Source: Minisyncoccia bacterium
GTDB taxonomy: Bacteria > Patescibacteriota > Minisyncoccia > Phycocordibacterales > UBA6065
DNA length: 64,000 nucleotides
Direction of reading: 5' to 3'
NCBI GenBank assembly: GCA_044233485.1
Contig: JBIIJY010000003.1
Location: forward strand, 32,481-96,480
Part shown: positions 34,901 to 40,900 of the stretch, one piece after another
Layout of the letters: the number at the start of each line of letters is the position of its first letter
Position numbering within the stretch: position 1 is the stretch's first letter
Program-made: the position numbers

Positions 34901-37900
34901 TTATACCCTCTCTCAATTGAAAAACTCTGCACAAGGCAGAGTTTTTCAATAGGAGTTCGGAGTAAAACCCTAGCAAAAGCTAGGTGGGTCCCCTCACTGT
35001 TACCGCCAAGGCGGAGCAGAATGTGAAGGATCAAGCCTTCGTTGGAGTCCCAAAATTTTAGGTATAGAGTTTTTACTCCGAAACCCCTCCTTTTATTGTA
35101 CTCTTTTTATACAGATTGCAAGTAACCTAGAGCCCTATCTTGTAATCAGTGAGGGCGAACGCAACAAAACCGATGAGCGCTAAAGTGATCATCAGATTAA
35201 AGATAAAAACTAGATATTTAGAGAGGTTTTTTTCTTTTGTTCGCAGAAAAATATAGACGATCAGCGGTAAAAACACTAATAGAAACAGCGGACTTATCCA
35301 GAAGATTAGAAATAAAGGATGCTCTCCGGCATACAGACCGAAAATTACTGAGAATAGTACTAGCGCCAATTGCAAAATCAATATCTTGTTGCCCATCTAA
35401 TTTAAGTTAGTTAATAACTGCTGTATATATCGTATCAATAAATCTCGTTCACTGTCACCCAGATGGCGCTTACTCAACCTTGATCTTTTTATCTCGCGCG
35501 CGAACCCTTGAATTTCTTTTCTAATATTCTTTGTTTTCTTATTCTTTTGAAGTTTCTTTTGTATCTCACCAATCTCTTTGAGCAGTTCTTTTTTGACCCG
35601 AGGTGGCACCTCAAGAGCCAGTACATACCCTCGAATGAGCTCTAGATACTGGAGAGGTGTTAAGGTTTTACTTGTATCAATTTGGGTGTCTACCCGCCCA
35701 TCACTATCTACATCAAGCTCCAAACGAGTTGATGTGCCCGTATAGAGTACTCGACCCGAGAGAGCGGTTGATACCGGTAAGTCCTCAACAGTCTGCATTG
35801 AAGACTCCACTCCATCTGCAGACACGTGCGAGATGATTGTTGTGAAAGTGCCACTGCCCGTACCTTTCAAGCGAGCTTGCACATTACTACCCGCGACGAA
35901 CCCGGCATACTTCGCCTCACCAAACTCAAAATAGTACGAGTTCGGGATTTCTGTGGTAGTGGCATTTGTTATGCGCCCCTGTGCATCGACAAGCTCAAGT
36001 GAGACCGGTGAATGAATTGAGATTTGCGAGAAAGACAGACCCGGATAGGTGCTTGAGGCCTGACTGATGTGGGCTATAGTTTCTGTACTTGACCCCACAA
36101 TAATACTCTCAAGTAATGTCTGTACTGGCTTAGTACTCAAAATACTGGCATGTGCTCGATTTTTATTTTGAGTATTGTGCCCATACAAATCAAAGTAGAA
36201 TGCCTCAGTGGTTGATTTCATTTCTGTCGCACTTACTACCGGCACAGTCCCGTCACCAGCCAAGGTTAATGTCGGTCGTGTATCTAGTGTACCGTCGTTG
36301 TCGATATAGCTAAACCGTGCCAGTGTCGGAACACCGGTCCCGGCAACCACGAAGGTACGTATATGTTCTGGTAACTGATAGTTATCAAACGTACTATGGA
36401 ACGCCTCTGCGTCAGAGTAGTACTGACTATCAAGCTTCACGGGCATAAGGAGCGAATTATACGAAGGCCGATTTGGGTCGAGACTGGCAAGTAAGAAGGA
36501 CTTTTGATCTTGAAAATTTAGCACTCCTCGGCCATAGGGCGAGAGGTTAATCCCTGAAAACGTCCGACCTCCCTGCTCAAAGGAGATAGTGCTTGTTGAG
36601 ATGTGCTCATAGTATTTTTCGGTTGGTAGAAGATAATATGGAGCTGGTATGTCGCGGCCAAGCTTTTTGGCACTTGCCTTATTTTGAAAAATACCAAAGA
36701 ATATTGATTGCTCGTACCCAAACATTAGGGCTGCTATTGTTTGCGGCGCACCAAGATGTGGTGTGGCGACAAACACCACCTTATCAATTGAACGCAGTAG
36801 ATCCTTGTCTTCCTCATCCGTAGAGTCCTCTAAAGTCTTAATAAACTCTTTTACTACCAGACCTCCATTACTATGAACCAGTATCGTCACTTTACCATTT
36901 TGAGCAGCCTCCTTAAGTCGTCTAAACTGAACCCTGAGACTTTCGCTTGTATTGCCCATTGGATCATCTGCCAGGTACTCACCCCGCACTATCTGTCGAG
37001 GTGAATAGCGCCAATCATAGACAAATATTCCAGCATTTCTATTCGTACGTGACGCAAATTCCTGTAACCACTCCTCAAATTGTCCGTAGACTTCAAAAGC
37101 TGATATCGGCTTTACCAAATCTCTCGCATATATTCCAGAAGTTACCGGGTTGCGAGTTGTTGAACTGAAGTGCAACTCCCTTCCATCAGCATTTGCGTTT
37201 GGCTCCCATAGTCGATCTTCACCGCCACGAGACTCTTGTCGATAAAGTCGACTCCCTTGAAAACCTGGTATGAACAAAACACCTGAGCAACATGCCGTCT
37301 CACTTTCTTGCACAGGAACTTCAGTAAGCCACGGACGGAACGAGACGAGATCAGTTACTTCATTACCCAGCCCCTCAGGATTACTCGCATGGTACGGCCC
37401 AGTCGCATCTCCCCAGAACACATTTGTCGCGATCACTTCATTTTCTGTGTTATTAAGAATCCCGACATTGTTATTGCGAACTGATGAATTCTCTATACGC
37501 AATATATCCGAAGATACACTTTGTGCCTGAACTTCAAATAGCGAACGCAACTGCTCCCAAAATCCTAGAATCACCGGCCCCGTATAGGCGCGTTCAATAC
37601 CATTTCCATTAGCTCGAATGTCAGAAAACTCTATTTGAACATTCCCCTCGAGGGTCCAGATACCGGTCCTGAAACCTTCTATTGTTGTTGAGGCCAGCGT
37701 TGTTGTACTGTGATCGCTCCATACCCCCTGACCTCTACCCATACCGAGCAAGGTGACATTATCGAGCCTCAGGCCAGAACTTCGAGCGTATACGGCCGCA
37801 ACATTACGAGGTTGAGTAAACAAAACACGGGCGTCAACGAGCTCAACATCCTTCGCCCGTATAAGCGACAAAGGATTGGCATCTATCCCGACTAACCCCT

Positions 37901-40900
37901 CTATGCGTATTTTCTTTTTCGTATCCGATAGATATACACCAGAATAGCTGTCACGAACATGTATATCTGTGAGCACGGCACTTTCCCGAGTATTAAGTAG
38001 TCCCACTCCACCAAAATCTTCGATTAATACATGCTCAATCTTTGGCACTGTCCTATTCACCCAAACTCCACCTTCACTTCTACGCAGATGCGTGTAAATA
38101 AGCTCTATCTCACCCGCCCCAGTAGTCTCTATGTTCCAAAATGGGTAGTTTGTTTCGGTACCTGATTCAAGATCTTGAATTGAAGTGAGTTGCACGAGCT
38201 CAGTCGGTGTTCCGCGAGCTACGAATCTACCCGACACTTCCAGGTAGCCATCATCAGAAAAATACACCGTCACCCCAGGATCAACACTGAGTATCACCCC
38301 GGCAGGAATTTCTACAAAACCACTTACCAGGTACGGACCTTGCTCTTTGGTAAGTACCTTGTCCGTCACCAGTACCGGATCAAGCTCGGTAAGGGCATAT
38401 ATATTGTTCGGGAGTAGCAGAGCGCAGAAGAGACTGAAGATCAGAGTTACAGAATACACAACGTATTCATGTGATTTCACTCAATTTTATTTTATTGATA
38501 TACCGAAACTGTACCTCGTTTTTCTTTCTCTGTAATAGAGCTCTGTGGATAACTCGACTGTAGTGGGACTTTCCAGCAAACAAAAAACCCCTTGCGGGGT
38601 TTTTTGTTTACAAAGCGTATTAGGCTTTGAACTCGAGATCAGAATTACGGATTCTGAACTGAAGTTCTCCAGTCTGTCTTACCAGACATGAAGTTTGATG
38701 TTGAGATTGTCGCTCCGTCGTCTGCTGACCATCGGATAGCGTCAATACCAATTGCTGTACCAGCGATTGGGTTTCCAGCAGCATCCTTACCTGGGAGTTC
38801 GAACACAAGATCACTAATAGTCATTGTGTTGTTTTCCTGGAGTCGGAAACTGTTAGAACCTACACCTGTTGTAACTACACCTGATGAAGGAATCGCAAAA
38901 CCTGATGACGAAGCGGTGAAGAATGTAACTTCTGAACCAGCGTTGTTATAGGTCTTGAATGCGAATGCTCGACTAGCTGAAGTTGAAGCCTGTGAACCGA
39001 ATGTAAGGTCTCCACCCTTAGCTGTAATCTGAACAGAGAACGAAGCCTTGATCGTAGATGTACTTAGAGTTGAACCACTGTTGTTAGATCCTGAAGTTGA
39101 AATTGTTCGACTGTTGAGGACGATAACTGGACCAGTGTTTCGAACATACATGTTTTCACCTGTAGCTGAACCTGTCTTTGTAGCAACTGAGTCACCACGT
39201 GAGTTTTCAGCTGTAACATCAGCAGCAACGAGTGTTCCCTTGAATACTGTTGCTGAAGTTCCTGCGTTTCGAACGTCTACTGCGACTGTATAAGTCTTTG
39301 TAGAGTCCTTTGCAACTACTACACTGTCGATGTTTGTGAAGTTAGCTTCGTATGAGTTTACAGCGTCAAATACTGGTGTAATTGACTCGATAACTGTTGA
39401 ACCATCCATGAGGTAGACGTTACTGAATGTTGCTGAACCTGAAGTTGTTGCGATCTTGATTGTAAGATCTGTAACATCAACTGAATCTTTCTCAGCTCGG
39501 AGGTCGAATGAGAAGAGAGTGACTTTGTCAGCCTCGTTCTCAAGTGAACCTGAAGTTGCAACCACGTCTGTAGACTTGATTGTACTTGAGTTTGTAGAAA
39601 GTGTAAGTCGAGATGAGTCAACCTGATCAGCATCCACATTCATACTTCTTGAAAGAGCTGAGTTTGGAGCGAATTGATCGATCGCAGCACCATCTACACC
39701 TCGAATTCCGTCAGTTCCAATTGTGATTGTGTAGTCTGATGAGAGATCAGTTGAGTCAATTGAAGAGAATACATCGGCTGCGATGTAAAGATTCTTCTTT
39801 GTGTTCTTTCCGATTACATAACTAAAGTTTGAGATAGTTACGTAATAGTTTGAACCATCCTTAACAACTGTTGATGAGTTGAGGTCAACTTCAGCGACTG
39901 TGTTCATTGAATCATCAAGAACATACAATCGATCGTAGATCTTGTTATAGATCTTTGTTGAGTTTCCAAGATCGAGCTTTACTCGCTGAACATTGATGTC
40001 TGAGTTTTTAGCCTCAAGTCGTGCTGCATAGACAACAACTTTCTTGTCTCCTTCGTAGATTGTTGTAGGAACATTCTGTGAAGTAAGAGCCATAGAAAGA
40101 GTTCCTTCTACACCTGTGTTACCCGCAACTGGAGTGTATCCAGATGGAGTAGATGGAGTAGAAACAACTGATGTTCCGTTAGCTTTAGCTCGAGTGATTG
40201 GACCAAAGAATCCAGCTGCTGGTGTAATACCATTTGCCTGCTGGAAAGCGATGACCGCAGCTCGAGTAAGAGGACCAAAATATGCAGTTGGAGCTGAGAT
40301 TTTGAGGAACCCCTTTGAAATAAGGAAGGACTGGAGAGCTGAAACTTCAGCACCTCGTGATCCTACGGTAAGGTTTGTGTTGAATGTCATTGTCTGAGCT
40401 GAAGCAGAAACTGCTACAACAAAGGCAAATGATGCCAACGCGATTGCTAATTTTTTCATATATGAATCAATTAATTAAGTACTTTCTCTTCTTAACAAGT
40501 AAGTCTTATAAGTTTGCGAAGATACTCATACGGTTTTGAAGTCCGGATTATTTCGTGTCGAACGAAAGTGTTCCGTCTTCTACGAACTCTTTTGACGGAG
40601 TCCGTTCTACTAATTTCGATTGTGTTTCTATACGAGATAGAATTCGACACACGCACGAAAGTTAGCATACATATCTAACTGTCTTTTCAGAATTTCTGTC
40701 GATGTCTGAATAAGGAATATCGGGAGTGTGCCACAACGTTTTATACTGCCTAATTGAGTTGTAAACGTTCTGGTTTGTATGAAGTAGTGATACGACATAC
40801 GAGCAAGGATAAGCACCCTTGCTTGCGTACAGTATATCGAACCTACATACAAAAATCACGTCGGTGTGGATAGTAAAGCGTAAATATCGATAAAATCGTT

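Follow-up and report, generated by a model that had tools for sequence, protein, structure and literature searches.

What would a member of the Minisyncoccia gain from exporting a lipase joined to a beta-helix? The question is raised by a gene in the 64,000-nucleotide (nt) stretch analysed here, which we call the window (Minisyncoccia bacterium, assembly GCA_044233485.1, contig JBIIJY010000003.1, positions 32,481 to 96,480 of the forward strand; all coordinates below count from its first letter). On the minus strand, in exactly the place given by a first-pass annotation of the sequence, lies an open reading frame (ORF) of 1027 amino acids (aa) whose product resembles lecithin-cholesterol acyltransferase (LCAT) and lysosomal phospholipase A2 (LPLA2); we refer to it as the lipase. 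It is followed by a small ORF for a membrane protein, and the two together are called the cassette. The parts of the cassette are listed here; predicted local distance difference test scores are abbreviated pLDDT.

35397..38480, minus strand: LCAT-like lipase gene, from the ORF list; 1027 aa, GTG start, TAG stop at 35397-35399
38394..38480, minus strand: predicted signal peptide, residues 1-29 (MKSHEYVVYSVTLIFSLFCALLLPNNIYA), with a hydrophobic window at 5-25
37401..38393, minus strand: N-terminal beta-helix region, approximately residues 30-360; the part matched by Pfam Beta_helix is 37419-37790
36081..37292, minus strand: LCAT/LPLA2-like alpha/beta-hydrolase domain, residues 397-800, counted from the vicinal Cys397-Cys398 and the FIPG strand
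36870..36872, minus strand: codon of Ser537, predicted nucleophile in HSNGG
36252..36254, minus strand: codon of Asp743, predicted triad acid in GDGTV
36150..36152, minus strand: codon of His777, predicted triad base in AHASIL
35676..36038, minus strand: family-specific beta-sandwich, residues ~815-935, with strands at core-model residues 423-542 (pLDDT ~80-90)
35400..35657, minus strand: basic helical tail, residues 942-1027 (~85 residues), with four helices predicted in both models described below
35127..35396, minus strand: 89-aa ORF, presumed membrane partner, with three strongly hydrophobic segments; called as a gene by the Joint Genome Institute (JGI) on both contigs

What kind of enzyme is it? 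The Pfam LCAT model (PF02450) matches residues 462-728 of the lipase (E 1.8e-14; 54.3 bits, gathering cutoff 21) and also matches all 46 aligned relatives. PGAP1, DUF676, DUF900 and DUF7379 overlap the nucleophile elbow, all below their Pfam cutoffs, so that of the four models proposed for scanning in the first-pass annotation LCAT and Beta_helix held and PGAP1 and DUF676 did not. Five motifs mark the domain: FIPGFQGSRLY at 403-413 and HSNGG at 536-540, both of which had already been picked out, YDWR at 488-491, GDGTV at 742-746 and AHASIL at 776-781. Ser537, Asp743 and His777, together with F403, P405 and G406 of the FxPG strand and Y488-D489-W490-R491, are invariant in the 46 relatives, which are only 26-35% identical to the query. 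Invariance at such distance argues for selection on catalysis.

The same motifs are colinear with those of LPLA2 in a weak profile-to-sequence alignment (LPLA2 first: PYDWR/PYDWR, AHSMG/AHSNGG, GDGDGTV/DGDGTV). Here Ser537 and Asp743 fall opposite the published Ser165 and Asp327 of LPLA2; the distance from the acid to the base is 34 residues in the lipase and 32 in LPLA2 (Asp327 to His359). Sequence searches against Protein Data Bank (PDB) chains were marginal, and the relationship to LPLA2 and LCAT is drawn from Pfam and from comparison of folds. For the latter we used a predicted model of the core alone, since the model of the whole protein was too poor for use. The core model (residues 394-1027, from 16 diverse relatives; pLDDT 80.7, predicted template modelling score 0.81) contains the alpha/beta-hydrolase, a beta-sandwich of eight to ten strands (~815-935) and four C-terminal helices (942-1027). 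In a Foldseek search LPLA2 and LCAT were its top matches, and the predicted core superposed on either of them over nearly the full length, including the extra subdomains of that family. The first-pass annotation had named two outcomes that would speak against its proposal, an incomplete triad and a lack of profile support for an alpha/beta-hydrolase fold; all residues of the predicted triad are present and the fold was recovered. We regard the enzyme class as secure: the core is an alpha/beta-hydrolase of the LCAT/LPLA2 type, in which the predicted triad Ser537-Asp743-His777 is intact.

The N-terminus of the lipase is, as predicted from its sequence, a classical Sec signal peptide, and the protein a Sec-exported one, in agreement with the first-pass annotation. 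A basic n-region (MKSHE) precedes the hydrophobic stretch at residues 5-25, and the likely signal peptidase I site, read from the sequence by eye, lies between IYA and LTE, without a lipobox. The n-region is supplied by the longer of two possible starts: JGI protein P0001 is the same protein apart from its start, a GTG seven codons further in, which gives 1020 aa. A protein identical to P0001 is present on three JGI contigs, one of them the 681-kb metagenome contig to which the window belongs (JGI 3300042914, Ga0453085_0000001). Strongly hydrophobic N-termini were found in 60 of 75 relatives, and a C-terminal membrane segment in none of the 75 family proteins. No NCBIfam model matches the lipase, and no paralog of its core or of its N-terminal region was found elsewhere in the window.

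Between the signal peptide and the hydrolase, the repeats previously described as beta-helix-like match Pfam Beta_helix (PF13229) at residues 231-354, with 30.1 bits (cutoff 25.9). The whole-protein AlphaFold model, built from six sequences, contains regular short strands at 41-297; their confidence is low, and they are consistent with a beta-helix. Behind the hydrolase, the beta-rich C-terminal region reported in the first pass corresponds to the predicted beta-sandwich, and the basic helical tail beyond it had been overlooked. Pfam has no match over the beta-sandwich, which in the alignment of the 46 relatives carries the conserved motifs HSPV, IPNS and LDxxGDGxxD (conserved columns H823, S824, P825, I845, P846, S848, G926, D927, G928 and D931). 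The loop with the last of these (LELDVDSDGRVD) appears to resemble DxDxDG calcium-binding loops. The tail holds 21 Lys and Arg against 10 Asp and Glu. It scores 17.2 bits against FIMAH (PF22888), under the cutoff of 24.8, and the same model matches nine of the 46 relatives at E 0.01 or better, the best at 1.1e-7. The tail is thus probably related to FIMAH, with the query itself below the membership score. This lysine-rich segment could attach to acidic membranes or to the partner.

How widespread is this protein? We scanned GTDB, one genome per species, with two core motifs and tblastn confirmation, and inspected the best 80 loci. The family occurs in at least 569 tblastn-confirmed stretches of GTDB species genomes. 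Labels of Patescibacteria lineages are carried by 70 of the best 80 loci (Paceibacterota/Parcubacteria, Nomura-, Kaiser-, Taylor- and Giovannonibacteria, Minisyncoccia, and many third-party assembly (TPA) records under the name Saccharibacteria); one further locus bears the label Bdellovibrionales, and nine have no classification. When 1.84 billion cluster representatives were searched exhaustively with an HMMER profile, the best 150 matches all lay below E 1e-200; at least 147 of these span profile positions ~370-1025, that is, the hydrolase, the beta-sandwich and the tail. The median length of family proteins (n = 75) is 941 aa, and the region before the FxPG strand measures ~130-590 aa in complete genes. 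In the 46 aligned relatives Pfam finds Beta_helix in 30 and NosD in nine. By these alignments, the conserved unit is hydrolase plus beta-sandwich plus helical tail, and the N-terminal module is variable, with the beta-helix as its commonest form. The matches place the lipase within a very large family of Patescibacteria proteins, and any notion of a unique fusion has to be given up. At the level of domains, the lipase adds a new bacterial branch to an enzyme family already known.

Some counts were set aside as measures of family size. One is the total of 4,707 clusters at E 1e-30, which proteins with a beta-helix alone, P0018 among them, push too high. A word-index homolog search gave five true relatives, an undercount when set against the hundreds to thousands indicated by the exhaustive search and the GTDB scan, because repeat-rich N-terminal domains filled its candidate list. 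When the word-index search was repeated with a 46-sequence profile, it was swamped by beta-helix proteins.

What stands behind the lipase gene? The tiny membrane-protein gene noted earlier proved to be a real ORF with three segments, but the gap is 0 nt and not 1 nt: the TAG of the lipase directly abuts the ATG of the 89-aa ORF, and no Shine-Dalgarno-like sequence is visible before that ATG. We examined the gene after the lipase in the 80 GTDB loci and in five loci from exact-protein look-ups. In most of them the next ORF encodes 83-156 aa with three to six hydrophobic segments and starts -8 to +9 nt from the lipase stop, most often at +1. Counting as a partner any ORF of 60-170 aa with at least three predicted membrane segments and a start -30 to +43 nt from the stop, we found one after 57 of 71 family genes, compared with five of 160 other ORFs of at least 250 aa in the same loci (Fisher p 1.5e-34, which overstates independence since the loci are phylogenetically related). 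The pairing persists at ~30% identity between lipases. The suggestion that the downstream gene is a partner is strongly reinforced at the level of the family by these counts.

The partner set of 62 sequences, window copy included, contains one homologous family of 47 members and a second family of eight. Members of the larger one often share two conserved cysteines in the first loop on the outside and end in a basic C-terminus. Representative sequences of both families gave no Pfam match. By strand, position, size and topology the 89-aa ORF of the window agrees with the partners, and it is presumed to be their positional and topological equivalent, with sequence homology not detected. Locus L005 carries two LCAT-family paralogs (L005:1-1013 and L005:6001-9543), ~5 kb apart around a phosphate ATP-binding cassette transporter operon, each with its own small membrane ORF after it (113 and 146 aa).

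What might the two proteins do? We favour, with moderate confidence, a surface-acting phospholipase A and/or transacylase that would work on neighbouring or host membranes to harvest lipids, together with a small membrane partner. If its chemistry follows that of LCAT, LPLA2, PDAT, Tle4 and plant LCAT-type PLA1, glycerophospholipids at the membrane surface would be attacked at their sn-1 or sn-2 ester to give an acyl-Ser537 intermediate. Water would then take up the acyl chain in a phospholipase A reaction, and an acceptor hydroxyl would do so in a transacylase reaction. The beta-helix would direct the enzyme to, or hold it on, the envelope of a neighbouring or host cell. The small protein would be a membrane-embedded partner in the producer, acting as an anchor or receiver or, alternatively, as a protector; a chaperone role, as suggested in the first pass, is a further candidate. 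The purpose would be the opening of host membranes and the harvest of lysolipids and fatty acids, which Patescibacteria are reportedly unable to produce. Since the lipase is secreted, has no anchor of its own and carries an N-terminal module that diversifies, another cell's envelope is its most likely target. From the stop-start coupling, in turn, one would expect the partner to be produced along with the enzyme and to act jointly with it.

Lipids of this kind have been discussed in relatives. Bacteria of the Candidate Phyla Radiation (CPR) lack lipid synthesis and show an enrichment in lysolipids, possible products of phospholipase A (PMC7242380), and the secreted phospholipase of a different CPR bacterium has been proposed as a supplier of host lipids (PMC8080830). 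In the literature library that we searched, nothing relevant linked the LCAT family with Patescibacteria or CPR, and no paper dealt with the present family. Three aspects of the family appear to be undescribed: the architecture of a variable N-terminal module, an LCAT-like core, a beta-sandwich and a FIMAH-like basic tail; the restriction to Patescibacteria among the best-matching loci inspected; and, most notably, the nearly constant pairing with a small membrane protein of polytopic type.

Comparison with characterized enzymes shows how far the likeness extends. The lipase shares only ~16% sequence identity with LPLA2 (PLA2G15, PDB 4x90) and LCAT (PDB 5txf and 5bv7; PF02450), and it differs from both by the N-terminal beta-helix, the C-terminal beta-sandwich, the basic helical tail and the small membrane-protein gene. 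Among secreted phospholipase effectors, with which the first-pass annotation had advised a comparison, its fold is similar to that of Tle4 (TplE, PA1510), a phospholipase effector of the type VI secretion system (T6SS) of Pseudomonas aeruginosa (PDB 4r1d, with the immunity protein Tli4). The lipase, however, has a Sec signal peptide rather than T6SS delivery, its accessory domains are different, and its partner is a polytopic membrane protein and not a periplasmic immunity protein. No T6SS components were found among the annotated neighbours, which are SecA, ribosomal, FtsK and glycosyltransferase genes. BlEst2 of Bacillus licheniformis (propeptide form, PDB 6wpx) and EstA3 of Thermoanaerobacter match far more weakly than LPLA2 does, and have no LCAT-type subdomains, beta-helix, helical tail or partner gene.

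In what surroundings does the cassette lie? Two features precede the lipase gene on its strand.

38581..38599, minus strand: terminator-like hairpin (CCCCGCAAGGGG, then six T, 38581-38587), read directly from the sequence
38645..40459, minus strand: gene for a Ser/Thr-rich secreted protein of 604 aa with an N-terminal PG_binding_1 domain, directly upstream of the lipase

The hairpin was missed by a simple hairpin scan, its stem having fewer than five pairs by the rule of the scan. It is placed after the PG_binding_1 gene and before the lipase gene, so that the lipase and the small ORF are probably transcribed as a unit of their own. Downstream, the first hairpins are in the 272-nt non-coding gap at 34855..35126, after the 89-aa ORF: one at 34969-34984 and one, ACTCTGCcttgtGCAGAGTTTTT, near 34925-34950. 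The two may be tandem terminators. No Rfam match was found in this gap, and no tRNA or Rfam family in the window.

Beyond the PG_binding_1 gene, the same strand encodes a 271-aa protein with a weak helix-turn-helix match, and further upstream, on the opposite strand, lies FtsK. Downstream of the cassette are genes for a DUF2238 membrane protein, a beta-CASP RNase, L20, L35 and IF3. The order FtsK, a protein of ~222-270 aa, PG_binding_1, lipase is common to the window and to locus L006, whose lipase is 27% identical. A PG_binding_1 homolog stands upstream in 13 of the 80 GTDB loci and also in L006, sometimes with FtsK beyond it; further loci with such a homolog include L012, L065, L073, L078, L080, L082, L086 and L087. 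On the other side of the cassette, rplJ is found downstream in 24 and rplL in 15 of the 80 loci, on the same strand and often with the cassette immediately upstream. The place beside rplJ-rplL is thus a conserved core-genome position in relatives; in the window the cassette lies elsewhere. Besides the small partner, rplJ, rplL and the PG_binding_1 protein, one further ORF family recurs next to the lipase; its counterpart in L006 has an MS_channel match.

Other genes were recorded near the family or in the window. In the loci of P0002 (L002/L003/L004, ~4716-5351) a secreted-type GDSL lipase gene (211 aa) and TspO/MBR lie just upstream of the LCAT-family gene; the GDSL lipase may be a second lipolytic enzyme of the same neighbourhood. 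At 55256..58711 on the minus strand, the window encodes a 1151-aa class I aminoacyl-tRNA synthetase of the Ile/Val/Leu type (tRNA-synt_1 and Anticodon_1) with a His_Phos_1 histidine-phosphatase domain (E 1e-32) in mid-protein, at residues 506-670, an unusual insertion or fusion. A surface-glycan cluster at 8226..10169 and 14189..29976, on the minus strand, comprises a Wzy_C O-antigen-ligase-like membrane protein with a sub-threshold TPR_8 match, a carbamoyltransferase, an asparagine-synthase-like amidotransferase, at least four family 4 (GT4) glycosyltransferases and a methyltransferase. It is followed by a DUF87/TrwB-like ATPase at 29978..31798.

Several observations weigh against a phospholipase acting on other cells with a small membrane partner. 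The first concern the protein itself. Structure prediction, which the first-pass annotation had called for, gave a good model for the core and a poor one for the whole protein (pLDDT 59.7), and the latter bears on the relative arrangement of the domains. The mature lipase has no cysteines besides the vicinal pair 397-398, and the stretch from the FIPG strand to YDWR has none; it therefore lacks the disulfide found in the lid of LCAT and LPLA2 (Cys50-Cys74 in human LCAT). A disulfide-stapled lid or membrane-binding loop is a feature of the animal enzymes that lies outside the Pfam definition of LCAT. Others concern the partner. The 89-aa ORF was a singleton when all partners were compared with phmmer, reached only E 0.018 against the hidden Markov model of the second partner family in the 62-sequence set, and aligned to the partner families by hhalign with probabilities of 2.8-6%. 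Among 5.8 billion proteins its only homolog was itself, as an 82-aa JGI call. Moreover, ~14 of the 71 scored family genes have no adjacent partner ORF, and 16 of 17 loci without a called partner, some of them cut by contig ends, keep the Ser, the Asp and a suitably spaced His. (At L012, which has no called partner, a simple pattern for the GDxTV motif of the Asp gave no match.) The partner is therefore not indispensable. Several partner-less loci continue into rplJ, and several also have a PG_binding_1 gene upstream, like the window.

The surroundings and the hosts count against it as well. No recurrent lipid-metabolism genes were found near the lipase in the 80 loci, and the rplJ-rplL neighbourhood looks like a housekeeping context. 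Finally, some cultured relatives of the class parasitise archaea, and archaeal ether lipids offer no ester bond to cleave, a caveat for every lipid model.

A bolder form of the same idea is that the cassette is the missing lipid-acquisition device of Paceibacteria-type Patescibacteria, in which the surface-exposed enzyme, aimed by the variable beta-helix, would strip acyl chains or lysolipids from a host membrane and hand them over, either directly or through transacylation, to the co-translated partner, which would insert them into the membrane of the parasite. We put this forward tentatively, as a possibility well short of probable.

Could the enzyme instead remodel the lipids of the producer's own envelope? 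Acting on the outer leaflet of the producer's membrane, it might transacylate scavenged lysolipids, or acylate a surface glycolipid or protein, with the small membrane protein presenting the acceptor or tethering the enzyme. Acyl transfer is as characteristic of LCAT, LPLA2 and PDAT as hydrolysis is; the family occurs very widely and in many loci adjoins rplJ-rplL, at a conserved core-genome position; and the tight stop-start coupling would fit a stoichiometric complex in the producer's membrane. The variable N-terminal module, however, with its range of lengths and its beta-helix in fewer than all relatives (30 of 46), suggests a diversifying adaptation to outside targets more than to an unchanging substrate of the cell itself, and family members without a partner exist. 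On balance we think remodelling of the producer's own envelope unlikely, though it is the strongest of the explanations that depart from an action on other cells.

The resemblance to Tle4 and the fast divergence of the partner bring to mind a toxin and its immunity protein: the lipase would lyse competitors or hosts and the small membrane protein would shield the producer. The Tli immunity proteins known to us, however, are periplasmic soluble proteins or lipoproteins, not membrane proteins of three to five segments. The retention of the triad in loci without a called adjacent partner is mildly against an obligatory immunity role. The annotated neighbours offer no secretion-system or polymorphic-toxin context, and a family that looks near-universal and occupies core-genome positions is unlike accessory toxin cassettes. 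A toxin and immunity pair is therefore improbable.

More improbable still is an esterase for substrates other than lipids, carried on a carbohydrate-binding scaffold, which would deacylate cell-wall polysaccharides, teichoic acids, lipoproteins or polyesters. Such an enzyme would suit the beta-helix and a neighbour that binds peptidoglycan; it is contradicted by the fold match specific to LPLA2. That the protein is a catalytically inactive adhesin that has kept a lipase fold is scarcely credible, since the adhesin-like combination of signal peptide, beta-helix and beta-sandwich and the poor model of the whole protein are set against Ser, Asp, His, FxPG and YDWR that do not vary at 26-35% identity.

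What would a phospholipase A or transacylase acting on other cells mean for these organisms? The ultra-small Patescibacteria account for much of the diversity of bacteria and are reported to be without fatty-acid and phospholipid synthesis (PMC7242380), and a 2024 review described the mechanisms of lipid uptake or breakdown in them as still unidentified (PMC11665869). The family is a concrete molecular candidate for filling this gap in lipid acquisition: it is secreted by prediction, widely conserved, LCAT/LPLA2-like with apparently intact catalytic residues, and coupled to a partner. It is open to ordinary biochemical tests and, for the few lineages that can be cultivated, to genetic ones. 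The N-terminal module, which varies between lineages, could bear on host range. Even if remodelling of the producer's own envelope should prove true, the cassette would remain the first LCAT-type system of bacteria to have a membrane partner of its own.

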